From: Escherichia phage vB_EcoM_Maryam
Strand: one strand, 5' to 3'
DNA length: 64,000 nt
Sequence record: PQ799574.1
Below are positions 25,776 through 49,458 of the stretch, one piece after another. The notes beneath the pieces were generated by a model. That model worked only from the letters and a program-made list of their open reading frames with translations, searched no databases and was not told the DNA's origin. Position numbers and translations under genes: made by a program. The number at the start of each line of letters is the position of its first letter. The first letter of the stretch is position 1.

Positions 25776-25860
25776 GTTGTTTTCTGTATCAGTAGTTGAT
25801 ATTGATATAGTACCATAATCAACTACTGATGTATATAGTTTTATGAAAAAATTTTAAACT

Positions 25861-26352: not shown

Positions 26353-26425
26353 AATTATCTCTCACTTGTTAAAAAGATTTTATACTCCGCAGGACCATTA
26401 TACTCTGGTCCCAAGAGTTTGTAAA

Positions 26426-26926: not shown

Positions 26927-26935
26927 AATTTTCCT

Positions 26936-27487: not shown

Positions 27488-27511
27488 CTAACCGAGGAAG
27501 TAAACAACTTT

Positions 27512-28922: not shown

Positions 28923-28928
28923 ATATCC

Positions 28929-30248: not shown

Positions 30249-30556
30249 CGGAAAGTCCCTGCAATTGGAATACTAACAATACGCCCAGTATCTAGAATTC
30301 GTTGATATAATCTTTGTGTATCTACATCAGGCTTAACATGTTTAACTTCTATTTTATTAAACCAAAATTTACGTGGGGTCTCAACTAATCTTGGAATTCC
30401 CTTACCTAAAGCTAGTTTATATTGGTCTTTGAGAGTAGTAAAAACTCTATCAGCAATCTCTCTTTCAAAAAACACAGCAGGACGATGTTCATCAAGTGGA
30501 ACTGGCGCCGTAAATCCGTCTTTGTCTCGGTAAACTATCGCATATACATAAACCAT
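30245..30556 (-). CDS. hypothetical protein
   Basis: ORF track 103 aa. Confidence 0.5.
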   Translation of the reverse strand: MVYVYAIVYRDKDGFTAPVPLDEHRPAVFFEREIADRVFTTLKDQYKLALGKGIPRLVETPRKFWFNKIEVKHVKPDVDTQRLYQRILDTGRIVSIPIAGTFR

Positions 30557-30557
30557 A

Positions 30558-31313: not shown

Positions 31314-31434
31314 ATTTTTCTCACATCTTACGGACGATTGACTACTATACTATAACATTTTTACCTTGGCTTGTAAACAATTTTATGAAAAATGCTTTAA
31401 AAATTTCATGGTATAATGAATCTAAGTCCTTCCA

Positions 31435-32037
31435 TTATAGATTAAATCCTTCAAAATCAAGAGTATAGATAGTGTATGTTGAGTACTTTTTGTACTCATA
31501 TCTATCTGCAATTCTAAATACACTTCCAGCTGGTATCATTACTTCTTGTTCATCTGAAACTAATTCCATATTACGATAACGATGACTATCCGGAAACTTA
31601 AAGTTTGGATTGTATTCTTTACAGCGTAGAGCTTTTATAGCATACTCCTGGAAATTGAATACCATAGGAGCTTTGAATTCAAAAATAACTTGTGTGTTAT
31701 ACTCTAAACCAGAAGCAAAATGTAGAGCTATATTTTTATCATATGAAGCTGATACGACTTTATCAAATGTAATAATATCAATTCCTTGATTTAATACTTG
31801 TTTAGTCTCAGCTGGAACACCTCTCCAAAGAGGTTTATCGTTTGGAACCAAACGAGATTTGATTATTTCATTTAACCAAGAATGATCGTCTGGTTTATTA
31901 GTAATACAATGAATTAAAAGTTCAATTTCAGATAAATTAAACCCTTCAGAAAGTAATTCTTCACGAATAGAAGCACGCACCGATGCATCCATTGATTTTA
32001 TTTTAAAATCTTTTAGTTGCATTACCGAGTATTTCAT
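31435..32037 (-). CDS. modA: ADP-ribosyltransferase ModA
   Basis: 200 aa; R / S-x-S / E-x-E ART signature (LWRG, SAS, EQEVMIP). Confidence 0.85.
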   Translation of the reverse strand: MKYSVMQLKDFKIKSMDASVRASIREELLSEGFNLSEIELLIHCITNKPDDHSWLNEIIKSRLVPNDKPLWRGVPAETKQVLNQGIDIITFDKVVSASYDKNIALHFASGLEYNTQVIFEFKAPMVFNFQEYAIKALRCKEYNPNFKFPDSHRYRNMELVSDEQEVMIPAGSVFRIADRYEYKKYSTYTIYTLDFEGFNL

Positions 32038-32657
32038 TCAACTACCTCAATATCATAAACTTTAAATGTTCCAAATGAATCGTGTAATTTTTCTTTTGAA
32101 ATAGAAGTTATTCTATACTTTCCAATTGGAATCATCCATTCCTGTTCACGCACAATCATCATTAAGTTATCAGTACGCTCTGAATCTAATCCATCAGTAT
32201 CTTCATACGTGTACTTAAACTCAGTATTAGGAGAAGAAAGTATAATATCGCTGATATGGTCAGAATAATTAAAAGCTTTATTAGTTTTTAAGCGAAGTAT
32301 TATTTTAGTAAAATATTCAGCGTAAGAAAAAGAACATGCTGTGAGCAAACTAGTAGTAAATGAATCTACTCTATTCGTTGAAAACACTTCTCCAACTTGT
32401 AAATCTTTAATAAGTTCTTCTGTTGATTTTGATATACCACGATATAACTGATAAGGTGATTTAGTTAAATGCTTTTTAATGATTTTATTCAACTGCCGAT
32501 GAAGAGCTTCATTCTTTTTGGCTTCCATACATTGCCAAAGAACTGACTGCTCAAAGTCAGTAAATTTTTCACAGACCTTTTTATACATATCATATTGAAA
32601 ATCGACGCTTTCAGCTTTTATAGATAACTGTTCAACATCTGCAAGATTAATAATCAT
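32034..32657 (-). CDS. modB: ADP-ribosyltransferase ModB
   Basis: 207 aa; ART signature (LYRG, EQEWMIP); tandem with modA. Confidence 0.85.
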   Translation of the reverse strand: MIINLADVEQLSIKAESVDFQYDMYKKVCEKFTDFEQSVLWQCMEAKKNEALHRQLNKIIKKHLTKSPYQLYRGISKSTEELIKDLQVGEVFSTNRVDSFTTSLLTACSFSYAEYFTKIILRLKTNKAFNYSDHISDIILSSPNTEFKYTYEDTDGLDSERTDNLMMIVREQEWMIPIGKYRITSISKEKLHDSFGTFKVYDIEVVE

Positions 32658-32724
32658 GATAGCCTCCGTATACTTCAGAAGCTATCATATCATCGTTAGA
32701 AAGGAAAGTAAACAACTTTTTGAA

Positions 32725-32907
32725 TTATTTTGCCCAGGGAGCCCAGGGCGGAGGGTCAAGATGGTATGAAGCTAGTTCTTCTAGAAGAGCATCTGGGGCT
32801 TCAATTCCATAATTCTGTAATACTATACGGTACTCTTTCTTATAATCACTAGAATCATTCTGGATATTCGTAGAATGATTATCTTCTAACATCTCAAATA
32901 AATCCAT
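32725..32907 (-). CDS. hypothetical protein
   Basis: ORF track 60 aa. Confidence 0.4.
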   Translation of the reverse strand: MDLFEMLEDNHSTNIQNDSSDYKKEYRIVLQNYGIEAPDALLEELASYHLDPPPWAPWAK

Positions 32908-32915
32908 ATTAATTC

Positions 32916-33386
32916 CTAGCGATAAAAACCAAAATGACGATTAGCTTCAGCAATCTTTCTTTCTTCTTCGGACATTCTCCATCGTAGTCCAACATCAAAA
33001 TGAGCCCAGACCATCCTAACAAATGCATTTATATCTTTAATATCTTCAATAATGAATGTTTTACTTTTAGAAGGTTGACTCGCTAATTTAACTTTATCGT
33101 CTTCAAACATGTCAAAAAGACCATATTCATGAGCTCTTTTATAGCCTTTAATAGTTAAAGCTTCAGAAGAAGAAAATGGTGAATCTGTATTCTGCAAAAT
33201 ATCTTCAGTATGCTTTATAATTAGAATAATATTTTCTGGATATTTTCTTTCTTTTATATCTTTAATTAAAATATCCGGATTTTCTGCTAAAGGAATAATT
33301 AATGAGCATTTTTTATCAAGTGTATTTACTGATTTACCTTCTTTAGACATAAATTCTATTGAATAATGTTTTGCTACTTCAATCAT
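32916..33386 (-). CDS. hypothetical protein
   Basis: ORF track 156 aa. Confidence 0.5.
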
Positions 33387-33539
33387 GGGATTTCCTTTTG
33401 CCTACTAATGGACCATCGGGAATTTTGTTTTCCTGGATATATTTCTCATTTTCTTCCATCATTTTACTGCCAATTTTAAGAAGCAAATCCAGTGCTTCAT
33501 TTGCTTTAGCTTTAGCCTCTTCCAGCGTCATATCTTTGT

Positions 33540-33743
33540 TCACGATTTATCCCCATAGATGTCTCTCATCAATTTAAGCGCTGAGCGTTCTAATTTCTTT
33601 TCTTTCTCAGCACTAATCATTGATTTCATCCATTCTTCCGATTCGTTCTGCATTTCTTTATTTGCTTGTTCAACCCAACCATCATCAATGTACATTGAGT
33701 TTGGTCTATTGAACCATTCAAGAATCTTCTTGAGAGCTTTCAT
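33540..33743 (-). CDS. hypothetical protein
   Basis: ORF track 67 aa. Confidence 0.45.
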
Positions 33744-34215
33744 TTATTTTACCTAAAACAATAGTAGGAGCATTGTCAAATTTATGAATTTTTAGCAAAT
33801 TTGGATTTAAATTATTCCATAAAGAGGTAATAAAATATGATAGCGCACTTTCGTCCGTAATTATAAATTTATTTCCTTTATCTATTTTCCAATCATATAT
33901 TGAATCATATGAATAGAAGGATAACGGTTTATTATTATAATATGCTTCAGCAACATCAATATAGTTAGATTTAGTAAATGCTTGAATTGCCATAAATGGA
34001 GAATTTTGTACAGTTTCAATAATTCCGATCTTTTTAAGTTTTATTTCAACATCTTCTGGAATTGGCATTGAAATAAAATCTTCTACTAGATACATGTTAT
34101 TGTCATATCTTTTATCAATCATTACTGCTACTGTAATTGGAACATCCTTGACAAACGCCATACTAATGCTATTGATAGACATTTCAAACAAAATTGCTTC
34201 CATAATTTTCCTCAA
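33718..34215 (-). CDS. hypothetical protein
   Basis: ORF track 165 aa. Confidence 0.5.
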
Positions 34216-34553
34216 TCACAAGATGTAGATGAACAACTAGAATCACAAGAACTTCCACATGAATCGCCCGTCCATACATAAACAGGAACATTTGTATCAT
34301 ATGAATCAGAACTAGACTGTGTTTTCTGTGCATTAGATGATGTAGTAGGTGTTGACCAGCGCCAAGGATTTTTATAATATTCTTGGGCTTCTTCATAAGT
34401 CATAGTAACTGCTTCTACTGTTCCATCTCCCATATAAACATACTCAACTACAGTTAAAGGAAGGTAGTCATTTGAAATAGGAACTACACCTTCTCCAGGA
34501 GTCGTAGAGAAAAAATCCGTAAAGAAACTTTTAAACCAATTAAAGATAAACAT
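34212..34553 (-). CDS. hypothetical protein with Cys/Ser-rich C-terminal tail
   Basis: 113 aa ending [18 protein letters not shown]. Confidence 0.5.
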
Positions 34554-34759
34554 TACAAAAAGCCTCTTTTGAATTCAACTTGTTTATCGCCATAATCATA
34601 TCGAATTTCTGCATTAAATTCAACAGAACCATCTGCGTACATCATAAATGAATGAACAACAACTTCTGTAGACCATGGTTGCAGTTCATATTTCTTCATT
34701 ACATGCCGTGAAATGATAATATCTAAATCTTCATTTGGTTTAATCCAACGATTTAACAT
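34553..34759 (-). CDS. hypothetical protein
   Basis: ORF track 68 aa. Confidence 0.45.
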   Translation of the reverse strand: MLNRWIKPNEDLDIIISRHVMKKYELQPWSTEVVVHSFMMYADGSVEFNAEIRYDYGDKQVEFKRGFL

Positions 34760-34830
34760 AATGCTCTCCTCTATAAGATAATTCTATTATACCATACTCA
34801 TTTTGGAAAGTAAACCGGTAAAATGAAAAA

Positions 34831-34850
34831 AGGACTCCCGAAGGAGTCCT
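34831..34850 (-). terminator. rho-independent terminator downstream of soc (8-bp stem, UUCG loop, U-run)
   Basis: AGGACTCC-CGAA-GGAGTCCT with A-run on plus strand (U-run in minus RNA). Confidence 0.65.
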
Positions 34851-34855
34851 TGAAA

Positions 34856-35101
34856 TTATTCACCAGTTACTTTCCACAAATCTTCGTTTGCAGTAATCCA
34901 TTCAGTACGTTGATTTTCTTCATATACTGTAGAATATGCTGCTTTTTCTGAAGGGAATATCTGATAATGAGCTCCAGAAATTTTGTGAACGTCAGAATAA
35001 AGAGGGAAAGCTACAGAAATTTCCTTTCCTTCAATTTTCTTATTTCCATCTAATTTCTGCTCAAACGTTTTGATATTAACATAACCGCGAGTACTAGCCA
35101 T
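34856..35101 (-). CDS. soc: small outer capsid protein Soc
   Basis: 81 aa MASTRGYVNIKTFEQKLDGNKKIEGKEISVAFPLYSDVHK... Confidence 0.9.
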   Translation of the reverse strand: MASTRGYVNIKTFEQKLDGNKKIEGKEISVAFPLYSDVHKISGAHYQIFPSEKAAYSTVYEENQRTEWITANEDLWKVTGE

Positions 35102-35131
35102 GTAATTCTCCTTTTATTTAAATTACATGAT

Positions 35132-35139
35132 TATTTATA
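35132..35139 (-). promoter_or_regulatory. late promoter TATAAATA upstream of soc
   Basis: Reverse complement of TATTTATA at 35132-35139, ~30 nt upstream of soc ATG. Confidence 0.6.
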
Positions 35140-35323
35140 ATAAATTCTCACGGAACGTTAAAATACCCAATTTTAGTTAATATAACAATATCGCCGTTAA
35201 TAATTACCGGAGAATAATCGGCTGGAGCATTAAATTTTCAATGGGCTCTAATATTATATCCATCAGAACCAAATGCTCGACTAGCCGGTCTCCCGGCTTT
35301 TTGCCATGCATAAAAATCAAATT

Positions 35324-35530
35324 TCATTTTGAATGCTCTATAATTAATTTTAAGGCTTCTTCACGCACCAACTTGCCTAATGGTATATGACCAGTTTTAA
35401 TTGTGTAAGCTTTGTGGAGCTGATTAGATAAGAGCTCGTATGTGAGCTCTTTGTCATAATTTTTAAATAGCTGGTCAATACGTTTCTTGCGGGCTTTCTT
35501 AAGCTGGCGTTTATTTAAACGAGCCATCAA
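35324..35530 (-). CDS. hypothetical basic protein
   Basis: ORF track 68 aa. Confidence 0.45.
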   Translation of the reverse strand: MMARLNKRQLKKARKKRIDQLFKNYDKELTYELLSNQLHKAYTIKTGHIPLGKLVREEALKLIIEHSK

Positions 35531-36045
35531 TAACCTCGGTCTTGACGAGCGAAGTTTTCAGCATTTTTCAGATAATAAAGTTTAAAGATTTCTTCAGCTG
35601 ACATTCCAAGAGCAATGAATTTATTCATGAAAAAGTGAAATTGGTCAATCAGTTCAAATTTAATTTCAAGCTGATCTTCAGGAGATAAGTCTTGAATTTT
35701 CTTGGATTGCATTTCAGAATAACGTTTCTTCCAAGGTTTCCATACGGCAGAAGCTTCTTTTTCACCATTACTCATACCACCAAGAGAAGTATATAGCTCG
35801 CGAGTTTCATCTGCGATATAATCGTCTTGGTTTCGCAGCCAAGTAAGAACTTCTCCTGCAGTTTCAAGTGAATCGGGATGACGATTTGTTTCTGGTTTAT
35901 CATTAGCCAAACGAATCTGTAAATGCCGCTGCATATCAAGCATAACCTGCAGTGGGTCAATATTGTGCATAATATTCTCAGCATATGCACGATTTGCTTT
36001 ATCAACACCTTCGATCAAATGAGCGCATTCATTAAAGTGAGCCAT
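35527..36045 (-). CDS. 56: dCTP pyrophosphatase gp56
   Basis: ORF track 35527..36138; true start MAHFNECAHLIEG... at 36045 preceded by AAGGAAA. Confidence 0.8.
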   Translation of the reverse strand: MAHFNECAHLIEGVDKANRAYAENIMHNIDPLQVMLDMQRHLQIRLANDKPETNRHPDSLETAGEVLTWLRNQDDYIADETRELYTSLGGMSNGEKEASAVWKPWKKRYSEMQSKKIQDLSPEDQLEIKFELIDQFHFFMNKFIALGMSAEEIFKLYYLKNAENFARQDRGY

Positions 36046-36116
36046 TATTTTTCCTTTCAATTCATGAGTTAGTAGATTAATTATACAATAAATATATAAA
36101 GCAATAAGGAGGACAT

Positions 36117-36317
36117 ATGGTACAAAAATTAATGGCACTTGTTAATGCCATCAAAGGTAATAAAAAGCGTATAGCTTTTACTATTTCTGCTATGGTAGGA
36201 ATTTTACTCTGGAACTTTATTCTATCACCTGTTGCAATTGCACATGGTATTAATATTCCAGTAGTTACTCTTGATACATTCGTAGATTTAGCATTTGCTT
36301 TAGTTGGGTTAATTTAA
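36117..36317 (+). CDS. small membrane protein encoded on opposite strand between genes 56 and 61
   Basis: 66 aa; strong SD AAGGAGG 7 nt before ATG; two hydrophobic segments. Confidence 0.4.
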   Translation: MVQKLMALVNAIKGNKKRIAFTISAMVGILLWNFILSPVAIAHGINIPVVTLDTFVDLAFALVGLI

Positions 36318-37342
36318 ATCTTAGCATATTTAGATAACCGCATTTTAGCCATCAACCCCTGGGCAATATTATTTTTCATATATTCCATAATTTGTTCAGG
36401 GGTTGCACCTTCCTTTCTAATCATATCATTAACATCTTTTGATTTCCAGGGAGATTTATCCCAAAACATAACCCTTTCTCCTGCATCAACTAATTTAGTC
36501 ATTCGCTTAATAGTGTCAGGATGACGAGGTTCATTATCTAAAACCCACACTCGTCTATCTTTAAATGGAACAACTTCTAGGTCTAATTGACCACCCGTAA
36601 TAGCTATACCATTTTCAATAAAAAGTGAATCTATAGGTCCTTCTAGAACATATACATCACCATCTTTAACTCGTTCGACTCCATATATTTTTGTTGCCTC
36701 AGGATAAGCTTTAATGGTGATATATTTTTGAGGAGCATCTTTCTTTAATGCACGTCCTTGAAAAGACTCAGCTTTTCCATTAGCATTATAAATTGGAATA
36801 ACAAGACGAGGCTCAGAAATTTCCTTTTTGTATGTTCCCGGTGCTATGCTATTAACTAATTTAGGCCATTCGGTTGTAAACCAAAGATATTTCCATTTAT
36901 CCTTTGGAATACAACGAGCTTTTACATATTTTATAATTGGATGGTCTTCCGCCAGTTTATCTAATCTAACACATGACGGAAGAGATTTAATTATTTTCTT
37001 CTCAGGTTGCTTAGGAAGTTCTTTAGGTTTTTCTACTGGACGACTTTTACCTTTTTCTTTTCTTATTTCAAAGATATACTCACGATATAAATCAGGTTCA
37101 AACTCCTTTAAATATATTCCGATTGGTGCATGATAATTACAGTTATAACAATGAATATTTCCTTCATTATTATCACCATAATACCATCCACGAGCTTTAT
37201 TCTGGTCGGTTTTTGAATCTCCACAAACAGGACATCTAAACCGCAATTTAAAAGTTGAACTATTATTTACTTGTGTGAATTTAGGTAAATGAGCCAATGC
37301 ACGATACGCAAACTCATTATCAATCCAAGGTATTGATGACAT
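36314..37342 (-). CDS. 61: DNA primase gp61
   Basis: 342 aa; zinc ribbon CPVCGDS...CYNCNYH plus TOPRIM. Confidence 0.9.
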   Translation of the reverse strand: MSSIPWIDNEFAYRALAHLPKFTQVNNSSTFKLRFRCPVCGDSKTDQNKARGWYYGDNNEGNIHCYNCNYHAPIGIYLKEFEPDLYREYIFEIRKEKGKSRPVEKPKELPKQPEKKIIKSLPSCVRLDKLAEDHPIIKYVKARCIPKDKWKYLWFTTEWPKLVNSIAPGTYKKEISEPRLVIPIYNANGKAESFQGRALKKDAPQKYITIKAYPEATKIYGVERVKDGDVYVLEGPIDSLFIENGIAITGGQLDLEVVPFKDRRVWVLDNEPRHPDTIKRMTKLVDAGERVMFWDKSPWKSKDVNDMIRKEGATPEQIMEYMKNNIAQGLMAKMRLSKYAKI

Positions 37343-37510
37343 TTTTACTCTTCTTTTTCTTTAGATTCCTCTTTTTTCTTTTTAGGAATCTGTTCAGGAC
37401 CTTTATTTACTACAGCACCTGATGTTGTTCCAGTAGAGATATTTTCAGGATTACCACCTGAATCTCCAGCGACCATATCTTCTTTAATAAATTCTTTATA
37501 TGTTTTCATA

Positions 37511-37867
37511 TTAACCTCTATTCATAAAAGCATTAAAAATTTGGTCATCAATAGATGGCGCAGTAATATTTTCTGCATCATTTAGCAAATCATTAATTTC
37601 ATCAGATAGCATAACACATGTACCTTTATTTCCTGTAATTGTTACTGCACAATTACGAACGTTTTCTTTATCAAATTTTAGGTTAATATTTTCGTAGTGA
37701 AAATCCTTTAATGCCGAATATATCTTTAAAATGAAATTGTCTTTTACTACAATAAACCCAACCTCACTATTAAAACGCGGTTCATGGAAACTGTAATAAA
37801 CCTTTTCATCTATAAAATCGTATGAAATTTTTTCCATTTTTAAATATGAAAATTCAGAACTATACAT
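37511..37867 (-). CDS. hypothetical protein (61.1-like), shares C-terminal DDQIFNAFMN(R/K)G with next ORF
   Basis: ORF track 118 aa. Confidence 0.5.
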   Translation of the reverse strand: MYSSEFSYLKMEKISYDFIDEKVYYSFHEPRFNSEVGFIVVKDNFILKIYSALKDFHYENINLKFDKENVRNCAVTITGNKGTCVMLSDEINDLLNDAENITAPSIDDQIFNAFMNRG

Positions 37868-37868
37868 A

Positions 37869-38510
37869 TTAACCTTTATTCATAAAAGCATTAAAAATTT
37901 GATCGTCAATAGAAACTTTTACTTTAGGCTGTTCTTCAAACGGTAATTCATATCCACATATTACAATTTTGTGATCGATACCAAAATACACAGAAGCAAT
38001 ATTATTAATATTATTTTCAGTGAAATCTAAATTAACATCAATATCTTTTTGACTAACGCTCAAAGGATAATTAATACGAATAATTCGATTATCTTTAACA
38101 AAGATTCCACCGACATACTCTGTGCTGCGTTTAAAGTTTACACGTTTCCTAAATGAAAAATATTCAGGTTCTTTATGGGCTCGACTCATAGGGCTTAAAG
38201 TGTATTCCGAATATGAAATATCAAATCCTACACCTTCAATATGAGCCAAAGTGTCATGATTAAACCAATTATAATCGTATGCCAAATCCATTAAATTGTA
38301 ATATGTGAAAGGCACCGGATTAACATCATGTGTTGTACCTTTAAAATCTGCCCAGGCAACGATTTCGTTATCTTTAACAATTACAAAAATTGTGTCAATA
38401 AGATATCCACGGTTATTTTCATCAGGCGTTATATTATAACATTGTGCATCAGGAAATTTACCGTATTTAAACGGCGGATTTTTGTGCATATAATAAATCA
38501 TATTATTCAC
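37869..38510 (-). CDS. hypothetical protein (61.2-like), two internal VKDN-type repeats
   Basis: ORF track 213 aa. Confidence 0.5.
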   Translation of the reverse strand: MNNMIYYMHKNPPFKYGKFPDAQCYNITPDENNRGYLIDTIFVIVKDNEIVAWADFKGTTHDVNPVPFTYYNLMDLAYDYNWFNHDTLAHIEGVGFDISYSEYTLSPMSRAHKEPEYFSFRKRVNFKRSTEYVGGIFVKDNRIIRINYPLSVSQKDIDVNLDFTENNINNIASVYFGIDHKIVICGYELPFEEQPKVKVSIDDQIFNAFMNKG

Positions 38511-38796
38511 CTGTGATTTCGGTTACGATATTTTTGTTATTAAAGTTTTTATCGCAATACAGAACATAATTATACTGCATTACACCACCAGACTTAAGTT
38601 GTTTTTGCACTTCAGCTTTCATTTTAGGACGATCGCGCTCAACGATATTCATAATATCCGCTTCAATTTGAGTTTCAACTTCAGTCTGATCTGCAGTCAT
38701 AGACCATTCACACAAATCTTTATCATATCCTGCCATAGCAGGCTGAGCAGCACAAGAAGCCAAAGTAAAAATTGTAGCAAAAATAAATTTTTTCAT
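38503..38796 (-). CDS. sp: periplasmic Spackle-like protein
   Basis: 97 aa with signal peptide MKKFIFATIFTLASCAAQPAMA; size and position match recalled T4 sp (61.3). Confidence 0.6.
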   Translation of the reverse strand: MKKFIFATIFTLASCAAQPAMAGYDKDLCEWSMTADQTEVETQIEADIMNIVERDRPKMKAEVQKQLKSGGVMQYNYVLYCDKNFNNKNIVTEITGE

Positions 38797-38856
38797 GATA
38801 ATCTCCTCAGTAGTTTATGTTTATATAGTATCTCAATTTCCAACAAAAGTAAACAG

Positions 38857-39156
38857 CTATTTTAAAACTTCTGCGTAATCACATGTTACAAACTGTTTCT
38901 CTAGCTTAACGATTTTACGAAAATACCTTTTATACTGACGAATCTGCCTCTTCGTAGGACGTACAGCAAACTTAATAAATTCCACTCGACCAAATGGAGG
39001 ACTTTCTTCTGCTGGAATATCTAACACCAATTCCCACGTATCTGCAATAAGTGCTTTGAATTGAGTATTTTTCCTGACGTTATACGGAGTAGGTTTAAAT
39101 AAAACAATATGCATATTATCCTCGGCAATCCACTTCGCACACTTTCTTGTCATCAA
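38857..39156 (-). CDS. hypothetical protein (61.4-like)
   Basis: ORF track 99 aa. Confidence 0.45.
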   Translation of the reverse strand: MMTRKCAKWIAEDNMHIVLFKPTPYNVRKNTQFKALIADTWELVLDIPAEESPPFGRVEFIKFAVRPTKRQIRQYKRYFRKIVKLEKQFVTCDYAEVLK

Positions 39157-39298
39157 TGAAAGCTTTAACTAATGCTTTATTAACTTCAGCATATTGAGTA
39201 GTAGCCCATTGAACGTCATCTTTCATCATTGTGATTTCTTTAGTAAACATGCTTTCATTCTTAAACCACCCCATAAAAACTACCTTTACCAATTCCAT
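39116..39298 (-). CDS. dmd: Dmd-like protein (60 aa)
   Basis: 60 aa directly downstream of gene 41, as recalled for T4 dmd. Confidence 0.5.
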   Translation of the reverse strand: MELVKVVFMGWFKNESMFTKEITMMKDDVQWATTQYAEVNKALVKAFIDDKKVCEVDCRG

Positions 39299-39356
39299 AA
39301 CAATCTCCTCATTTAACCAACAAGACTACTATACCATAGTCTTGTCAGCTTGTAAA

Positions 39357-40784
39357 CTAAAATTTTAATTCATTTGCCAAAGCATCTAACTGAGCTCGAG
39401 CTGATTCGTTTCTTTGATAGCGATTCTGTTCAGCCTGAATCTGTTGTGAACCTGCTACTTCACTCACTTCGGTTGGAGTAGAATCTTGTTCAATTTCTAC
39501 CCATTTTTGATTTCCTTTTTGAACACCCATCAAAAACTTATTCCACTTATTCTTATCACCATATCGTGATTTGATTTGCTTAATAAGTTGTTGTTCAGCA
39601 GCTGCTAGCTCCTCAGTTTCAATGACCGCAAGCATAAAATCAGCTGTTGCTGGAAGACCAGCAGATTCTGCAATATCGCTCATGTTAACATCGGAAGAGT
39701 CCCAAGCTTGTTTACCGACCTGTGCTGCAGTCCAAAGAACAGTTTCGGTTTCAACAGCCAGAGCACGCAATTCCTCTGCGATAGCTTTAACAGTTGTGTA
39801 ACTATTTTCTGAATAAACTCGGATGCGACAAGATTTACAAATACCCAGATAGTCGACAATAATGATTGTTGGAACAAAATTCTTTTTGAGCTTCAATTCA
39901 TTCAAGAGAGACCTGAATGTATTAGCATCTGCTCCACCAGTAGGGTACTGTTTAACGATTAAACGACCAAGAGTAGATTTCTCACGCCATTTTTCCATTT
40001 TTCCTTTATACTCAGCGTAAGAAATATGTCCATCATCAATATCGTCAAGAGAAACATCGAGCATGTTAGCATCAATACGTTTAGCACAGACTTCTTCGGC
40101 CATTTCCATGGAGATATAAAGAACGTTATGACCAAGCTGTAAATAATCCGCTGCTAATGAACACAATCCTAATGACTTACCAACGTTAACGCCAGCCATT
40201 AAAACGTTCAGTGTTCCTGTTTCAGCTCCGCCTTTTGTAATTTTATTCAAAATACGAAGTTTAAATGGAACTTTACGAGCTTTATTCATATAAGATAGCC
40301 AGCGTGCTTCGTAGTCATCCATCCAATCATGACCAACGTAGCTATCAAATGAAATTGATAATGCTTGGCGCATGATGTCAGGAATAGCACCAACATCCGG
40401 CATTTTCTTATTTCGTTTTTCCGGAGGAAGCTCAGCATTAGTTTGAATTTCGATTATTTTAGACGTAGCATTAAACATCGCCCTTTGCTGAACATATTTT
40501 TCTGTTTCTTTTACTAACCAGCTGTGGTCTTCCGGAGAATCAGCCAGTTTTGAAATAAGTGTTTTTACACCAGAATATTCTGTTTCAGTAAATGAACTAT
40601 TTTCTAATGCAACATTTAACGCATTAATAGATGGAACGCTATGGTACTCATTAACATGAGATTTAATTAATTTGAATGTATTTTTAGCTGGACCACTTTC
40701 AAAATATTCTGAATCCATATATGGCCAAACTTTTGAAAAATAAGCTTGATCAAATATAAGATGAGAAAGAATAATTTCTACCAC
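39357..40784 (-). CDS. 41: replicative DNA helicase gp41 (DnaB-like)
   Basis: 475 aa; Walker A GVNVGKS. Confidence 0.95.
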   Translation of the reverse strand: MVEIILSHLIFDQAYFSKVWPYMDSEYFESGPAKNTFKLIKSHVNEYHSVPSINALNVALENSSFTETEYSGVKTLISKLADSPEDHSWLVKETEKYVQQRAMFNATSKIIEIQTNAELPPEKRNKKMPDVGAIPDIMRQALSISFDSYVGHDWMDDYEARWLSYMNKARKVPFKLRILNKITKGGAETGTLNVLMAGVNVGKSLGLCSLAADYLQLGHNVLYISMEMAEEVCAKRIDANMLDVSLDDIDDGHISYAEYKGKMEKWREKSTLGRLIVKQYPTGGADANTFRSLLNELKLKKNFVPTIIIVDYLGICKSCRIRVYSENSYTTVKAIAEELRALAVETETVLWTAAQVGKQAWDSSDVNMSDIAESAGLPATADFMLAVIETEELAAAEQQLIKQIKSRYGDKNKWNKFLMGVQKGNQKWVEIEQDSTPTEVSEVAGSQQIQAEQNRYQRNESARAQLDALANELKF

Positions 40785-40793
40785 ACTTACTCC

Positions 40794-41138
40794 TTAAAAG
40801 AATTTAAACTTTTTCTTTGACCTTTTATTAAATGCATCTTGTAGTTGCATTGTAATACATTTTTCTACATGAGGAGCTAACTCAGCTTTTCTTTCTTGGT
40901 CAAGAACAGCAAAGTCCATTACAACCTTTCCATCAACCCAATCCAGTTTAGTTACATACACTATATGTGTAGAACCATCTTCTAGTTTAATGACAATCTC
41001 CTGGATAACATTTTCCATGGCAGATTTAATTATCTTAAGAGATTCATTAAAAAGACGTTCTTTTCTTTCTTCTTCCCCCTCCGAAGAGGGGGATTCATCG
41101 ATAATTTCTAGATCTAAATCTAAATCATCTTTATTCAT
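40794..41138 (-). CDS. 40: gp40 head vertex assembly chaperone
   Basis: ORF track 40794..41156; second ATG gives 114 aa without overlapping uvsX. Confidence 0.6.
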   Translation of the reverse strand: MNKDDLDLDLEIIDESPSSEGEEERKERLFNESLKIIKSAMENVIQEIVIKLEDGSTHIVYVTKLDWVDGKVVMDFAVLDQERKAELAPHVEKCITMQLQDAFNKRSKKKFKFF

Positions 41139-42312
41139 TAAATTCTTCCATATCACTTAACTGCTCGAGGTCAGTTTCTAAATCAGCAGCTGATTTACTT
41201 TTACTTTCTGAAGATTTAAATTTTTCAACTTTTGAGTTAATCAATTCATCAACTTCAGCTTCAACAATTTCATTACTATCAATAGCACCTAACTGATAAG
41301 CACGTTTAATAGCATCTCGGAATGGTTGATGCTTAAATAAAGGACCCCAGAATGTAGTGCAGTTGGTATCTTTTGCACGCCAAGATTTTTCTTCGCGAAT
41401 CATCTCGCCGGTTTCTTCGTCAAGAAATTCACGCGCATACCAACCATTTTTAGGTTTTACTACAAATCCTAATTCTAGAGCCATATCTAACAATCCAGAA
41501 TAAGGATCAATACCACCGTCAAATTTAACATCAATAAAGAATTTACTTTTTTCTTTAACGGTACGAGATTTTTCTACATTTAGAACAAATTGATACCCCT
41601 GAAGATCAGAACCATCTTTAATCTGACGCTTACCGATAATGAATACTGTATCAGCCGAATACATTACGCCTGTACCACCTGTCATCACGGTTTTACTAAA
41701 CATTTCAATTGTTTCAATTGTATGGTTAACCGCAACACATGGAATATTTTTAATGCTAAAGTAAGGAGTAACGATACGGAATAATGACTTCAGTGATTTA
41801 GCACGAGTCATATCTGCCACAGATTTTTCATTTAAGGCATCTTCCGTTTCTTTCTTAGAAGCCATATTACCGATTGAGTCGATGAATACAATAACCTTTT
41901 CACCACGCTCAATAGCTTCAAGCTGATTCACCATATCAATTTTCAGCTGTTCAACTGACTGAATCGGCGTATGAATTACTCGTTCCGGGTCAACTCCCAT
42001 GGATCGCAAATAAGCTGGAGTAATACCAAATTCACTATCATAGAATAGACAAACCGCGTCAGGATATTTGTTCAAATATGCCGCAACCATAGTCAAAGAC
42101 ATATTTGATTTAAAGTGTTTAGAAGGCCCTGCGAAAATAGTTAAACCAGACTGCATACCGCCATCAATCGCACCAGAAATAGCGATATTAAGCATTGGGA
42201 TTTTTGTGCGGATTACATCCTTTTCATTAAAGAATTTAGATGTAGTCAGTTCAGCAGTCATTTTAGAAGTGGAAGCTTTAATCAAACGGGATTTTAAATC
42301 TGCAATAGACAT
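41131..42312 (-). CDS. uvsX: UvsX recombinase (RecA-like)
   Basis: 393 aa; RecA-fold motifs; recalled T4 UvsX. Confidence 0.95.
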   Translation of the reverse strand: MSIADLKSRLIKASTSKMTAELTTSKFFNEKDVIRTKIPMLNIAISGAIDGGMQSGLTIFAGPSKHFKSNMSLTMVAAYLNKYPDAVCLFYDSEFGITPAYLRSMGVDPERVIHTPIQSVEQLKIDMVNQLEAIERGEKVIVFIDSIGNMASKKETEDALNEKSVADMTRAKSLKSLFRIVTPYFSIKNIPCVAVNHTIETIEMFSKTVMTGGTGVMYSADTVFIIGKRQIKDGSDLQGYQFVLNVEKSRTVKEKSKFFIDVKFDGGIDPYSGLLDMALELGFVVKPKNGWYAREFLDEETGEMIREEKSWRAKDTNCTTFWGPLFKHQPFRDAIKRAYQLGAIDSNEIVEAEVDELINSKVEKFKSSESKSKSAADLETDLEQLSDMEEFNE

Positions 42313-42389
42313 TCATTTTTTCCATAGGCATCATTATATTTTCCTCACTGGTTAAAGATAGAGTAATTATAACATAATAAATTTAGGCA

Positions 42390-43238
42390 TTAATCAACTG
42401 CTATTGGATGAATAGCATTAAACTTATGAAATGCTTCTGATTTTTCTTTGCGCGAAACGCACATGCGAAGAACCTTTAATGGCTCGTCTTCTTCACCCAA
42501 CGATTTTCGTTTTTCAATATTAGAAGTTTTCCAACGAGCTTGCTCTGGAAACTCTCTATTGATTTGCTCAAGCGCTCTATTATGTTTAGAATTACTACGA
42601 ATTGAACTACACCCGCCAGGAGCTTGTGCTTTTCCAGATACAACCAGATATTTGAACAAGGCCAAATGCGGATAACCTTGATTAATTAAATTGAGAAATG
42701 CATACATATCTTCGCACAAATCAATTTTTCCATACCCAATTTGTTCTGTCGTAAGTTTTCCGAGGTCATACCATGTATTCGTGAATCCATATGAATTTTC
42801 ACGATAATTACCCCAAGATGAAGTAATTTTAAAAATTGGTAGGCGAGCATGACCGTGATAATACCCGCAATCCATGGCATCTTCAACGTATTGAATCAAT
42901 TCATAGAACTGTTCACGGGTTAATTGATTGACTTTATCTACACAACGACGGTCATCTCTTTTTCGCATTGAACTCATACGAATAGTAGTATCATCGTCAA
43001 TCATCCAGATTCGTTGACCTGCATACATATCAGTAATTGCTTTACGAGTACCGGCAATTCCGTTTACATCATCAGGAATAGTTATAATTTTAGCTCTAGA
43101 CCCATAGGCATCATAATAAGCTTTTTCTTCATGTTCACGCACTACAATATGGGGTTCATAATCAGTCGGAAACATATCAAGGGCAGAAACTGCCCCGACA
43201 CGCTGATAACTTGGAATTACGAATTGAATCATTTCCAC
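42390..43238 (-). CDS. putative glucosyltransferase at the beta-gt locus (T2/T6-type beta-glucosyl-HMC alpha-glucosyltransferase-like)
   Basis: 282 aa with DDD motif; lies between uvsX and 42; does not resemble recalled 351-aa T4 beta-gt. Confidence 0.5.
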   Translation of the reverse strand: MEMIQFVIPSYQRVGAVSALDMFPTDYEPHIVVREHEEKAYYDAYGSRAKIITIPDDVNGIAGTRKAITDMYAGQRIWMIDDDTTIRMSSMRKRDDRRCVDKVNQLTREQFYELIQYVEDAMDCGYYHGHARLPIFKITSSWGNYRENSYGFTNTWYDLGKLTTEQIGYGKIDLCEDMYAFLNLINQGYPHLALFKYLVVSGKAQAPGGCSSIRSNSKHNRALEQINREFPEQARWKTSNIEKRKSLGEEDEPLKVLRMCVSRKEKSEAFHKFNAIHPIAVD

Positions 43239-43969
43239 TCACCGTTATAATCTTTTTTCACAATATGAGTTTCGCCAGTATTCCACCAATGATCAACCAA
43301 GTAAAAATGACGAGAATATACATGAAGACTTCCAACATTCCATATAATAGAACCTGCTTTATACTGACGAGTTGAATCGCCGGCATTCAAATCAGATACT
43401 AATTTATCTAATACGTATTTTTGCCATGCATAATCATTACGGAATCCGAAGACCACGTCATTTGAGCGCATGCTTACTACTGCATTGACTTTCTTATCAC
43501 GAATCAGGTACTGTACTGTATTAGTACACATGAAATCTGACATACCATCTTTATTGTAGTCAAATTGCATGGATGGACGAGTATAAATCATGATACCACG
43601 TCGAGAATCAGGATTTTGACCAAGTTCAGCTAAACACATATCATACTGGGCATAGTTATCTTCTGACCAAATAGCCCAACCATAATTCGAGTTAATTTCG
43701 CCTTTAGAAGATGCTACCTGCTGCCAAATCTTTGGTGTTTCGCCTGGAATATCTTTAACAAACAAGCTCTTAGATTTATACCATTCAAGTTCACGCTGAA
43801 TGTATTCATCATTAAGAGCGCCAAAAATAAAGGGTTCATCTGCTACAAATGATGCGCCAATAATTTCAATAGTTTTAACGCCAGTTTTATCAACTACGAA
43901 ATCTTTTTCCTTTAATGCAGTTCCCAAATAAAAACGGATTTCTTCAACTGTCATAGAGTCATTAATCAT
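43229..43969 (-). CDS. 42: dCMP hydroxymethylase gp42
   Basis: 246 aa; thymidylate-synthase-like fold. Confidence 0.9.
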   Translation of the reverse strand: MINDSMTVEEIRFYLGTALKEKDFVVDKTGVKTIEIIGASFVADEPFIFGALNDEYIQRELEWYKSKSLFVKDIPGETPKIWQQVASSKGEINSNYGWAIWSEDNYAQYDMCLAELGQNPDSRRGIMIYTRPSMQFDYNKDGMSDFMCTNTVQYLIRDKKVNAVVSMRSNDVVFGFRNDYAWQKYVLDKLVSDLNAGDSTRQYKAGSIIWNVGSLHVYSRHFYLVDHWWNTGETHIVKKDYNGEWK

Positions 43970-44122
43970 TTAAACCTCAATTGATACATTCATATTTAAC
44001 TTGTAACAGTAATAAACCCCAACCTAAAATAATAGTCGGAATCATAAGAGGAACCGTTACACTATAGTATATACTTATTATAATCATCAAGATTAAAAGC
44101 AACACTTCTATAATTTTGCTTT

Positions 44123-44374
44123 TCATTCCTTCTCTCTGATGATAATTACTTGATTTGGCTGTGCAGACTTTTTAGTTTCACCCGCAATTGACCAAATAAA
44201 TGTAATAAACCAACCAATAATTGACCAGTTAAACAGCAAAGACGTGAAAAAGATTCCTACTGTCGATTTTGACCCACGCATCAAGGCGATAAACCATGGA
44301 AGCATGTATATAATAATAGCCAACACACCTGAAACTAAAACCATAAAAATTGAACCTGCTACTAAAGTTTCCAT
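44123..44374 (-). CDS. imm: immunity (superinfection exclusion) membrane protein Imm
   Basis: 83 aa, two TM segments. Confidence 0.8.
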   Translation of the reverse strand: METLVAGSIFMVLVSGVLAIIIYMLPWFIALMRGSKSTVGIFFTSLLFNWSIIGWFITFIWSIAGETKKSAQPNQVIIIREKE

Positions 44375-44381
44375 GTTTTCC

Positions 44382-44762
44382 TCACTTAGTCAAATTTTTT
44401 ACGCATGAATTATAAGAATTCACTACATACTCCATCGGAGCATTTTTACCGGTACGCCATTGGTAATTATTAGCCCAATTTGCCCAAAGCTCGGCGCAGT
44501 AGTTTTCAATTTTTTCTTCGCGTGTAATTACATCCGAATTACGATATGCTTGAGCAGATTCATCTGGACGAATAGCTTCGTCAAAATTTGCCTGCATTTG
44601 TTCTACTGTTTGCTTTGGAGCTTCTTTATAACACTTGACATTAGGATTATAAAACTTGCTTGAACAGTTTACAATTTTTCCTACATCAGACTGATTTACT
44701 ACCGGTCCTTGAGCCACACAACCAGTAAGACCTAATGCAATAACCAAAATAGCGATTTTCAT
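44382..44762 (-). CDS. putative lipoprotein adjacent to imm
   Basis: 126 aa; signal peptide with lipobox LTGC. Confidence 0.5.
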   Translation of the reverse strand: MKIAILVIALGLTGCVAQGPVVNQSDVGKIVNCSSKFYNPNVKCYKEAPKQTVEQMQANFDEAIRPDESAQAYRNSDVITREEKIENYCAELWANWANNYQWRTGKNAPMEYVVNSYNSCVKNLTK

Positions 44763-44772
44763 AATAATTTCC

Positions 44773-45021
44773 TCAAATGCAAGTAGTAATTACTCCAGTA
44801 GTGCTTATGCAGGTATTACCCATTTGCACACCTAAAGATCCATTTGTATTCACATGAAGATTATCATCAATTTTAACTGATATTTTACCATTAGTGTGAA
44901 TAACGGTGCTAGATTTAATCACAGGTTGAGTATCATTTTCAACACTAATAAATGGAACTGCTACTAATGCAACTAAACAAACTGCTAAGCATCCCATAAC
45001 AATTTTCATTTTATTCTCCAA
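44773..45021 (-). CDS. secreted/membrane small protein
   Basis: ORF track 82 aa; hydrophobic N-terminus. Confidence 0.45.
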   Translation of the reverse strand: MENKMKIVMGCLAVCLVALVAVPFISVENDTQPVIKSSTVIHTNGKISVKIDDNLHVNTNGSLGVQMGNTCISTTGVITTCI

Positions 45022-45025
45022 ATCT

Positions 45026-45055
45026 GTATCAGTAGTTGATAGTTGTATAGTACCA
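45026..45055 (-). promoter_or_regulatory. T4-type early promoter (GTTTACA 17 nt TACTAT)
   Basis: Reverse complement reads GTTTACAAGACTGTTCTTCTGTGGTACTAT. Confidence 0.5.
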
Positions 45056-45163
45056 CAGAAGAACAGTCTTGTAAACAGTTTTGTGAAAATTTTTTAGGGA
45101 ATTCTAAAGGTCCAGAATCATCTGTTTTTCATAAGTATAGATTTATATTACTTGTATGAAAAA

Positions 45164-45179
45164 GGGACCCGGAGGTCCC
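45164..45179 (-). terminator. GGGACC-loop-GGTCCC hairpin with U-run downstream of gene 43
   Basis: Inverted repeat read from sequence; A-run on plus strand. Confidence 0.55.
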
Positions 45180-45192
45180 TAGATTTATTCTA

Positions 45193-47888
45193 TCAGCCAA
45201 ACAGGAAGTCTAACGAAGCTTTTTCTTCATAGTCCATACCAGCCGATTCACACATGCCTGCAAGCGGTTTAACAAACGATTTTTGGAACAAAGTTGAGTA
45301 GTCAATCCAAGATAGTACATCAGAACGAATTTCTTTTGGAAGTTCTGTACCCGACGGCCAAGCAATGCACTTGTCGCCAAATGGATTTCCTTCACGTAAT
45401 GGAAGAACCATTACCTTATTTCCATCCAAAATTGGAGCTACACCCAGACCACTAACAGCTCGACGATAAGTTAGCACACCACGAATATGGAACGGGCATT
45501 TAAATCCTGGCCAACCTTTATCATCATATTTCGCTATATCGTTCGCAGTTTTTACTTCAGCAATAACTTTATAGTCAAGTTGACGATATTCTTTCTCGAA
45601 GTTCTTGTAATATTCTTGGACAGACTCTTCACCTTCCTGAAGAATACGACGAATACTTTCTTCAAGAGCTTCTTGAACTGCTTTAGGCGTTGAACTTTGC
45701 TGAGTTTCCATACCCATGATTTTTAGATGCGGTTCAGCAAAACGCTTATCTTCCATATCATATACGTTCAGAGCATAACGCTTTTTCGCTTTCCAAAATC
45801 CACCAACGCCCTTTGAACCAAGTGGAGGGCAAGAAATAGCTTCACGGTCCATATGCATCAGATGCTCGCGGTTATTCATATAATCACATAACTCACGATA
45901 TGCAACATCAATCATAGGTTCCATCTTTTTCTTACCGAACTGATTCATGAATTCAACTAAATCGTTCTGCTCTTTGAATCGGTCAAGACCAACTTTTTCA
46001 ATAACTTTATCTACACAAACATATACCGAATCAGTATCACCTGCTGCAATGAAATCTTCGCCATTAGTTCCGCACACTTTATTCAGATACTCATTAATTT
46101 TACGAGCAATCCACTGAATACCAACTTGGCCGAAAATTGTGATAGCAGTAGCATTTCGCAAATCATAGTAACGGAAATGAATATTACCAAGAGCACCGTA
46201 AAGGCTGTTAATAAGAATTTTACGGTTCAGCTGATTTGTATTAGCAAGTGTAGCCGCTTTTTCACATTCTTCAATCAAACTATTGAGAACAGATTCAGTA
46301 TAATTCGATAGTTCATTTAAGAAATCATCACTGAACTTAACATATCGTTCAACTTCAGGTTTAGTTGAACAAGACCCTGCGCCTTTCATAATAATCTTTT
46401 TAATAGCTTCGGCATTCATTTCTTCAGCGAACATTTTCTTTTTCCAATCTTTACGCTGGAAAAATACTTTAGCGATTTCCTTTGGAATGATACCTTCTTG
46501 ATGCTTATCGTACATCCATCCATTCGGAGAACAAGAATATTCATCACTCGGTTTAGGAGCTGTTCCTGCGATATATTCATGAATTGGATGAACTTTAAAC
46601 TGACCACGAATAGTCTCAGGACTAATGTTAACCTGACGAATAATGCTCGGATACAGAGACGTCAAGTCAAAACTCATAATATATCGACGAGCAATTGGTT
46701 TAGGTTCAAATACAAATGCACCCGGAAAACTCTGTTTAACGTGCGAACCTTGTTGAGGAATAACCTTATGTTCACCTTTCAATGAGTTAAAAATAATAGC
46801 ATCCCAGGTTTTAATAGGACTCATTACACCAGAAAAAGGCATTTTAGCGTAATAAGACATACTTAAAACTAGATCGATAAACCCGCGAATTTTATCAATT
46901 GCTTGAACTGATTCTACGTCAATGATGTTATAACTAATGTATCGTTGATGATTAGTCTCACGAAGTTTATTAATAGGACCGTCGTATGGTAATTTACCTT
47001 TTTTGGTTTCATGCTGAGCAACTGATTCCAAAGAGAATGACGGCAAATTAGTAAATGCGAATTTCTTATACAAATCTAAATAATCAAGAATAGATACGCC
47101 ATCAATAGAATAAATTTCTTTGCTACCGTACATATTTTGGATAAGTTTAGATTTTACTCGACCGATTGGAGAGAAGCGTTTCATACTACGTTCACCGAGA
47201 ACCATTTTAACGCGATTCATGATATACGGAACGTCAAATCCCTCAATATTCCAACCAGTAAAAATAGCAGGTCGTTTCTGTTCCCAGAGATTGATATATT
47301 CCATGAGCATATCACGCTCATTATCGAATGGCATATAAATTACTCGGTCAAGAATTTCTTGAGGAACTTCATCACCACCTTCACAGTCAAGCTTAGCAGC
47401 TAACTTTGCATCCCATTTTGATACTGAACCATACATTGAATTCAAAAGGTCGAAAACATAAAAACGATCATCAATTGAATCGTAATGAGTGATAGCATCA
47501 ATTTCATATTCAGCTTTCATTGGGTCAGGAAATTTATCACCAGTAACCTCAATGTCACAGTTAGCTACACGAACAAATTTTCGGTCATAAACAATTTCTG
47601 AACCGTATGTATCACTGATAAAGCGAGTTTAAAATCGTTCATACCGAGAGCTTCGAGACCGATGTCTTCCATTCGTTTCATCCAATCTCGAGCATCTTTC
47701 ATTGATGGAAATTTTTGAGGAGCGCAGTTTTTACCATAGATGTCTTTGTACTTTGACTCTTCCTTACAATGCCTAAACATAGTTGGAAGATATTCTACTT
47801 CACGAGTACGTTCCTTTCCATTTTCATCAATATAACGTTCAACAATATTATTTCCGACTGTTTCAATAGAGATATAAAATTCTTTCAT
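45193..47888 (-). pseudogene. 43: DNA polymerase gp43 interrupted by a 1-nt frameshift near 47619
   Basis: N-terminal 84 codons in ORF 47565..47888, remainder in ORF 45193..47520 in another frame; the second frame is open upstream and reads ISDTYGSEIVYDRKFVRVANCDIEVTGDKFPDPMKAEY. Confidence 0.85.
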
Positions 47889-47930
47889 AGATATTCCTTA
47901 GTTTATAGCCCGAGTTATTAGGCTCTTGAT
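47889..47930 (-). promoter_or_regulatory. probable gene 43 translational operator / 5' leader hairpin
   Basis: Leader contains AGAGCCUAAUAACUCGGGCU-type hairpin just upstream of SD AAGGAA; T4 gp43 is known to autoregulate via such an operator. Confidence 0.3.
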
Positions 47931-47948
47931 ATATTATACTCCAAATAA

Positions 47949-47962
47949 GGGGCCGAAGCCCC
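47949..47962 (-). terminator. GGGGC-UUCG-GCCCC hairpin
   Basis: Same 16-nt core as at 51729-51744. Confidence 0.5.
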
Positions 47963-47968
47963 TTTGCT

Positions 47969-48256
47969 TTAAATTTCTATTGTACGACGCGATATAACGG
48001 ACTTGCCATCTGTATTTGTGGTTTTGATAATCGCATGAAATGCGCGTTGGCGTGGGTAAACTAATCGTTGGAATTCTTTTTGGAATTCTATTTGTTTATC
48101 TTCCGGGAGGTCAAAAACCAGTTGGGTAGAAGACAGACCATATGTTTGTTTTAGATTTTCGAATATTAGAAAAGCTTCGGTAAACTGAATCTCTGATTGT
48201 GTCATATAATTTACCTTAATTACCAATCGTATATTTAGGAACGAGTTTCCATTCAT
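47969..48256 (-). CDS. hypothetical protein between regA and 43
   Basis: ORF track 95 aa; start likely internal. Confidence 0.45.
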   Translation of the reverse strand: MNGNSFLNIRLVIKVNYMTQSEIQFTEAFLIFENLKQTYGLSSTQLVFDLPEDKQIEFQKEFQRLVYPRQRAFHAIIKTTNTDGKSVISRRTIEI

Positions 48257-48584
48257 GTTTTTGTTTAAAAGAAATAACTCGGAAGTTATTAGTTAAATCT
48301 TTCATAAAAGTTCTTTGACCAGGAACGATTTCAATCAGTCCCCAATCTTCTAACAACCATGCAATCGAATCACGACGAACTTCATCTTCTTCTGTCATTT
48401 CAACTTGGCGACCATCCATACGAAGCATTTCTTTAAAATGAACGATATAGTATAGTCCTTTTTTCTGAAGAATATGACAGGACTGATACAGAACTTTATC
48501 TTTATTATTAGCAATTCCCATACGAGTCAAAGTTTCTTTTACTTTCAGAAAATCTTCAGGTTTTTTAAGAGTAATTTCAATCAT
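48216..48584 (-). CDS. regA: translational repressor RegA
   Basis: 122 aa MIEITLKKPEDFLKVKETLTRMGIANNKDKVLYQSCHILQKKG... Confidence 0.9.
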   Translation of the reverse strand: MIEITLKKPEDFLKVKETLTRMGIANNKDKVLYQSCHILQKKGLYYIVHFKEMLRMDGRQVEMTEEDEVRRDSIAWLLEDWGLIEIVPGQRTFMKDLTNNFRVISFKQKHEWKLVPKYTIGN

Positions 48585-48585
48585 T

Positions 48586-49131
48586 TTACCATTCCAATGC
48601 TAGTTTTTTGAGTTGTTTCTGTTCTTTTACGTTCTTAGTCACTTCTTTCAAAAAATCATCCGTGACTAAACCTTTTAGTTCTTTTAATACTAAAGGAAGT
48701 TTTCCATTTTTAGTAAGAATTGATTTATAGTTAATTGCATCATTTGTATTAACTTGATACCACTTAGCAAGTAACTTAATAATCAATACTTCGGTGGAAT
48801 CTTCAACCAGTTTTGCCCATTTACCGTATCTTTTACCACGAGGAACTGCAGCCATTAGATAATTAAAATGAGCTTCATCACTTAAGCCTGATCCAATTAA
48901 ATTCATAGCATATACAGCTGGCATGCACTCTGGAAATTGTGATAATGCATTTTCAACCATGAATTTTGAATAATCTTTTTGAGCAATAGAGCATTTAGTT
49001 TTATTATTGATAGCTCCAATTATTTCAAAAAATTCATTTTCAGCTTTTTCTTTAAAAGAATCAGCAGCGGATTGGACAGCTGTCCAATCTTTTGAATACC
49101 AAGCAAGTAGGAAAAGATTATGTATGCCCAT
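48586..49131 (-). CDS. 62: clamp loader small subunit gp62, N-terminus atypical
   Basis: 181 aa; from [15 protein letters not shown] onward matches recalled gp62, first ~9 residues MGIHNLFLL do not. Confidence 0.75.
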
Positions 49132-49237
49132 TTAGTTCTCCGGTAAATGGAATGCTAAAACCTGCTTTACGCGATCTTTATATTGCGATGAACGAAGAAA
49201 TGATAAAAGAATTAAAACGTCAACTGAAGGTGATTTA
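49111..49237 (+). pseudogene. 3' fragment of an unidentified ORF ending at breakpoint 2
   Basis: Frame open only from the stop at 49108; encodes ...MLKPALRDLYIAMNEEMIKELKRQLKVI then stop. Confidence 0.3.
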
Positions 49238-49239
49238 AT

Positions 49240-49458
49240 TTGGCCAGGGAAATTAATTCAAAATCCGATTATTTTAATTCTCTCAATGATAAAGATAAAA
49301 ATCTAATACGGCATTTTATTGTTGAGATGGGATATACCGATACACGCGATTTAAGAGAACATATATTTGAATGTGGTGTAGCTAAAAAGTTTTCATTCAC
49401 ATGCAAATGTTTGAGAGAGGTAATTCAGCACTATGAACAATTTAGTCGCAAAACATAA
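49240..49458 (+). CDS. hypothetical protein
   Basis: ORF track 72 aa. Confidence 0.5.
   Translation: MAREINSKSDYFNSLNDKDKNLIRHFIVEMGYTDTRDLREHIFECGVAKKFSFTCKCLREVIQHYEQFSRKT

Follow-up and report, generated by a model that had tools for sequence, protein, structure and literature searches.

Has this phage given its clamp-loader gene 62 a new N-terminus and a new set of neighbors, or has its sequence been joined to DNA that does not belong there? In the window, by which we mean the whole 64,000-nt stretch of Escherichia phage vB_EcoM_Maryam (PQ799574.1) that was analyzed, a minus-strand gene 62 with a foreign start runs directly into a 3′ gene fragment that has no start, and gene 44 is missing from beside it. 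The DNA of the window is T-even (Tequatrovirus), with 93–99% identity to T4, RB27, CAM-21, and hundreds of relatives. The clamp loader and sliding clamp of T4, whose genes are 44, 45, and 62, are essential for DNA replication, and middle transcription is activated by MotA; arn.2 is a hypothetical T4 early gene located between arn.1 and arn.3. Three features make up the locus, whose joint we call breakpoint 2:

48586..49131, minus strand: chimeric gene 62 open reading frame (ORF), 181 aa
49106..49107: breakpoint 2, where the last gene 62 base (49106, T4 30862) abuts the first arn.2 base (49107), from base-by-base alignment
49107..49256, plus strand: arn.2 3′ remnant, Arn.2 residues 50–98, no start codon

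Beyond its start, the minus-strand ORF is gp62, as a first-pass annotation of the sequence had recognized. Residues 10–181 correspond to T4 gp62 residues 16–187 with one substitution in 172, the full profile of Pfam PF16790 (Phage_clamp_A) is covered (E=1.6e-76), and PDB 8UH7_A matches residues 8–181 (E=1.5e-111). The domain is complete, as in T4 gp62 (PDB 3U5Z/3U60/8UH7; PF16790), and regA and gene 43 follow downstream as they do in T4; unlike in T4 gp62, the first 15 residues are swapped for nine from antisense arn.2. The annotation had counted about nine foreign codons, which holds for what was put on (MGIHNLFLL, codons 1–9, 49105–49131), but the native part that was replaced amounts to 15 residues, i.e., 43 nt at the 5′ end, and the native N-terminus (MSLFKDDIQLNEHQV...) is absent. 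Whereas T4 gene 44 normally ends 1 nt before the start of gene 62, no gene 44 adjoins the ORF here. The nine codons had been described as antisense to a plus-strand frame, and by alignment that frame is arn.2. The chimeric ORF begins at the first in-frame ATG in the arn.2 antisense, with a stop codon immediately before this ATG and, as read directly from the sequence, a GGAG 6 nt upstream of it.

The joint itself was placed by alignment to gene 62 of RB27 and T4 and to arn.2 of CAM-21 and T4, which narrowed a crossover previously estimated at about 49105–49110 to 49106|49107, with gene 62 antisense on its left and arn.2 sense on its right. The joint is blunt, without a shared base, because the window differs from the next base in each parent. 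On the right side, the plus-strand frame is open from 49056, and not only from 49111 as had been thought, while arn.2 homology starts at 49107 (Arn.2 residue 50). From there, 49107–49256 is 98–99% identical to the 3′ 150 nt of arn.2 in CAM-21, G10400, and T4, and is followed by the canonical order arn.1, arn, asiA.1, asiA, t; unlike T4 arn.2, the remnant lacks the 5′ 147 nt and the start codon and carries a private premature stop. The startless 3′ fragment said to end near 49237 is therefore an arn.2 remnant, but its end there is not that of the gene: a private C>T at 49236 changes Arn.2 Q93 to a stop (premature TAA at 49236–49238), and the arn.2 ORF of relatives runs six codons further, to 49254–49256. 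The C>T was found in 0 of 484 matching phage records and was also absent from IMG/VR. A second private transition relative to the closest of these 484 records, T>C at 49266, is intergenic. Around the joint, gene 43, regA, and 62 lie on the minus strand and arn.1, arn, asiA.1, and asiA on the plus strand, after which t, gp38, and gp37 are again on the minus strand.

The synteny breakpoint described in the first-pass annotation is thus real in the sequence, but it is not isolated. Local blastn of the window against T4 (NC_000866) resolved three pieces, and breakpoint 2 is the right end of a 35,118-bp middle block (13989..49106) that is inverted relative to both flanks and has its partner junction at 13988|13989:

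73–13988, reversed: left piece, T4 48638 down to 32548; nrdC ... 55, a-gt, 47, 46, rpbA, and the first 56 nt of 45
13989–49106 (T4 HSP from 14375), forward: middle piece, T4 163604 through 168903/1 to 30862; motA codons 1–24, motA.1, 52 ... rIIB, rIIA ... 43, regA, and 62 from codon 15
49107–64000 (T4 HSP from 49101), reversed: right piece, T4 162031 down to 147590; arn.2′ ... asiA, t, 38–34, rnh ... 32

Taken singly, all three pieces are colinear with canonical Tequatrovirus genomes (T4 NC_000866, RB27, CAM-21, and about 500 records) at 93–99% identity; relative to the canonical order, the middle 35.1-kb piece is flipped and about 1.5 and 1.7 kb are gone at its ends. One missing segment of ~1.7 kb corresponds to T4 30863–32547 (1,685 bp) and holds the 5′ end of 62, the whole of 44, and 45 from codon 20 onward, and the other, of ~1.5 kb, holds the 5′ half of arn.2, arn.3, arn.4, and motA from codon 25 onward. 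All three pieces lie at a similar distance from their nearest database relatives, about 2–3%, which would fit one novel phage rather than a mixture of two.

Other differences from T4 are distributed over the window. Between uvsX and 42, a 282-aa ORF (42390–43238, minus strand) matches Pfam TAGT (TET-associated glycosyltransferase, E=1.2e-9), and T4 beta-glucosyltransferase has no tblastn match in the window, so that the DNA glucosylation module of this phage is probably a different one. The large subunit of topoisomerase II is a single 606-aa ORF (22134–23954, minus strand) with GyrB, HATPase, and TOPRIM_C domains, unlike in T4, where it is split into 39 and 60, and the T4 segment with the gene 60 bypass region, 60.1, and mobA is absent. 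A T2-type host-range module (50942–55061, minus strand) includes a 262-aa gp38 adhesin (Pfam GP38 + Gp38_N), next to an 1103-aa gp37 with only about 34% identity to its T4 counterpart; the identity of database records across the tail-fiber region does not exceed about 96%, and the strain-specific gp37 has no exact protein match on record. Ordinary T-even mosaic differences from T4 occur at 35139–36106, 584–967, 2624–2627, and 8694–8719, and among the mosaic differences are a gene 56 only 70% identical to that of T4, the lack of a dam match, the absence of 49.2, 49.3, and mobB, and an nrdD without an intron or I-TevII.

At the partner junction, two genes are left as 5′ stubs that meet at their cut ends:

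13988..13989: breakpoint 1, blunt head-to-head joint of gene 45 to motA
13933..13988, plus strand: gene 45 (sliding clamp) 5′ stub, first 56 nt, remainder gone from the window
13989..14062, minus strand: motA 5′ stub, first 74 nt, remainder gone from the window

The T4 alignment of the middle piece starts only at 14375 because an extra small gene, which T4 does not have, lies between motA and motA.1 (14155–14373, minus strand). This gene is found in vB_Eco_BGP (hypothetical protein, 71 aa), UoN_LDJ77_1, and Salmonella phage Manna, and in alignments to vB_Eco_BGP-type phages the middle piece is homologous from 13989 onward, which takes in the first 74 nt of motA.

What the two junctions do to gene content was assessed by a tblastn census of 94 T4 proteins against the window. 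Gene 44, whose absence had already been noted, has no match anywhere in the 64 kb, nor do arn.3 and arn.4, and 45, motA, arn.2, and 62 are present only as partial copies. All other T4 genes with a counterpart in the window are full length (65–100% protein identity), and the lesions are therefore not what remains of an element at the end of its decay. Because the essential gene 44 is gone, 45 is a 5′ stub, and 62 is without its start, a genome with exactly this sequence could not replicate. Apart from these junction lesions, there is only one other in the window, a 1-nt deletion in gene 43 (DNA polymerase, minus strand) at 47620–47622 (GATATAAGC > GATAAAGC on the plus strand), which splits the polymerase at codon 89/90 into ORFs 45193..47520 and 47565..47888. 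None of 502 matching phage records has this deletion, and 84 of them are otherwise identical across the 161 nt tested. It is likely an uncorrected sequencing or polishing error, and this second private lethal lesion would most simply be read as a mistake in the sequence.

A separate deposit bears on breakpoint 1. PV290051.1 (Escherichia phage vB_EcoT_BCU-2) is only 46,924 bp long, yet titled “complete genome”; it is a fragment of a roughly 167-kb T-even genome, spanning gene 5 through the start of gene 44 and ending inside gene 44. Its positions 32001–45988 are identical to window 1–13988 (100.000% identity, 0 mismatches), the next-best relatives being at 97.8%, and it departs from the window exactly at 13988|13989. 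Past that point comes a 936-bp tail, 99.0% identical to RB27 and absent from the window, in which gene 45 is complete (228 aa) and is followed by the 45-44 intergenic region and by 84 codons of gene 44. The search for genes 44 and 45 that was proposed as a check when the locus was first annotated thus found both in their normal place in this record, gene 44 as its first 84 codons. Judged by this identical deposit, the DNA of this phage carries the canonical rpbA-45-44 order, and the PV290051.1 assembly broke inside gene 44, i.e., within one of the segments missing from the window. The deposit contradicts breakpoint 1 only; no identical record covers breakpoint 2, and no further identical sibling records were found for the middle block or the right flank.

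Window base 1 is PV290051.1 base 32001, an offset of exactly 32,000, and so round an offset suggests that the window was taken from some longer sequence, which would have its first 45,988 bases in common with PV290051.1 and to which the other pieces were then attached. In the window, the PV290051.1 sequence stops 936 bp short of the end of that record and is not joined at its terminus, and therefore simple contig concatenation is insufficient and a re-assembly or trimming step must be assumed. Overlap-merging of the PV290051.1 tail with the missing motA-arn.2 segment was considered and rejected, as the two have no similarity.

Neither junction recurs in the collections searched. Among 50,697 phage records, none spans either junction, and about 500 T-even records match one side or the other of breakpoint 2 without a single one continuing across it. 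The exact junction patterns were absent from IMG/VR (both breakpoints), JGI metagenomes, and GTDB genomes, megablast gave no match to the junction in E. coli genomes and plasmids, the chimeric gp62 protein has no exact match on record, and a search of the literature on this phage or on T-even inversions found nothing relevant.

Inversion mediated by repeats or microhomology was rejected, since the four break sites share no sequence and both joints are blunt; comparison of the break sites gave only chance matches of 9–12 nt, none of them at the breaks. A similarity of 11/14 between the gene 62 and arn.2 sites (TACCAAGCAACTTG vs TACCAAAAAGCTTG) is 3 nt out of register with the joint and was treated as chance. 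By inspection, no restriction site or common cleavage motif was found at the four break sites, HindIII occurring at one site only. An amplification chimera arising from a local inverted jump was rejected as well, because the jumps are about 37 kb apart and not local. Searches for a new promoter or terminator at either joint returned nothing above shuffled expectation. A natural synteny variant would be recognized by its recurrence, by essential genes left intact, and by homology where the breaks occurred, none of which is seen here. The importance implied for the locus by its first description finds no support: the pair of junctions breaks essential genes, is unique to this sequence, and is contradicted at breakpoint 1 by PV290051.1.

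We consider it very probable that breakpoint 2 arose where pieces of a fragmented Tequatrovirus assembly, each assembled on its own, were put together, and that it is not phage biology; the phage is most likely vB_EcoT_BCU-2, or the sequence a re-issued version of that record. Directly observed are the geometry, the bluntness of both joints, the absence of the junctions from all other records searched, the broken essential genes, and, at breakpoint 1, the disagreement with the identical deposit, and the strongest line pointing to an artifact is PV290051.1, an independent, 100%-identical deposit with the normal order at breakpoint 1. Signs of an unpolished or fragmented assembly are visible in the private 1-nt deletion in gene 43 and in the sibling record of 46.9 kb that ends inside gene 44. 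A fragmented assembly of one T-even phage would have been turned into a single sequence from three pieces, namely PV290051.1-type positions 1–45,988, the 35,118-bp piece, and a piece starting inside arn.2. The 35,118-bp piece would have been put between its proper neighbors in the wrong orientation, and the two short connecting stretches (~1.7 kb and ~1.5 kb) would have been dropped or never assembled. That these pieces were contigs, joined manually or by assembly or scaffolding software, is our inference. What looks like a “new N-terminus” in gp62 would then reflect only the first in-frame ATG that the arn.2 antisense happens to contain.

Mis-joined or mis-oriented contigs in draft phage assemblies, and likewise complex structural variants of the “deletion-inversion-deletion” class, share with this arrangement a block in place but flipped, the loss of short connectors, blunt joints inside genes, and a lack of support in relatives. 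Some points run against an assembly artifact, among them the limitation of the PV290051.1 evidence to breakpoint 1 and the extra re-assembly or trimming step. A real inversion, too, would be expected to leave the block in its proper place and change nothing but its orientation, and the private nonsense change in the arn.2 remnant, to which a truly broken gene would be indifferent, speaks weakly in the same direction, being a single change.

The first alternative is a rearrangement that is real but defective, which we regard as unlikely. Here, four breaks would have been followed by religation of the block in inverted orientation with loss of both end fragments, and the product would have persisted as a sub-population of the stock, kept by wild-type helpers, until the assembler picked it up. 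Such an event has the geometry of a true inversion (position correct, orientation flipped, small losses at both ends), its blunt joints would be expected of end joining or of topoisomerase-mediated illegitimate recombination, a mixed population would account for the normal order at breakpoint 1 in PV290051.1, and the private stop codon in the arn.2 remnant agrees with it. The price is four simultaneous breaks together with the loss of several essential genes, in a minority defective genome of a kind that does not normally become the consensus; moreover, there is no second example in any collection searched, and the gene 43 frameshift shows that the sequence contains errors anyway. Slightly less likely again is the fully specified form of this event, i.e., a T-even stock in which the 35-kb early-gene block (motA′ to ′62) was inverted after four breaks and 44-45 and motA-arn.3 were lost, a chromothripsis-like deletion-inversion-deletion maintained by helpers. 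A true rearrangement of this complexity, with blunt ends and in a phage without end-joining functions, would be a rarity among documented cases.

Editing after assembly, in silico or by hand, is very unlikely to be the source of the arrangement, although some details would suit it: both junctions are perfectly blunt, fall within genes at arbitrary points, and have no k-mer in common, and the offset to PV290051.1 is round, with that sequence truncated 936 bp before its end. A segment might have been reverse-complemented while the record was reordered or revised, or the window might contain a simulated structural variant, with no reads reflected in either case; on the present data, however, this account looks the same as a contig-join artifact, and it is a sub-case of “not biological”. 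It is scarcely credible that the order is real and viable, with 44, 45, motA, and arn.3/4 relocated or duplicated outside the window and gp62 working with its new 9-residue N-terminus, for although the window shows no more than 64 kb of the genome, the ATG of the chimeric ORF has its GGAG 6 nt upstream, and the Phage_clamp_A domain is intact, relocation of the missing pieces could not restore intact genes because the 45 and motA 5′ stubs stay at breakpoint 1, leaving relocated copies without starts unless they were full duplicates, and, in addition, PV290051.1 has 45 and 44 in their canonical place beside rpbA, none of about 500 close T-even relatives has such an order, and gene 43 is frameshifted too.

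Read as a contig-joining artifact, which we favor, the arrangement predicts no new gene, mechanism, or genome architecture. The consequences lie in how the two records are used, as neither the source sequence nor PV290051.1 is reliable when synteny, pangenomes, or gene presence are analyzed in Tequatroviruses. Read literally, the two records would lead to the false conclusions that motA and the genes of the clamp and clamp loader have been “lost”, that there is a variant gp62, and that 35 kb have been inverted.
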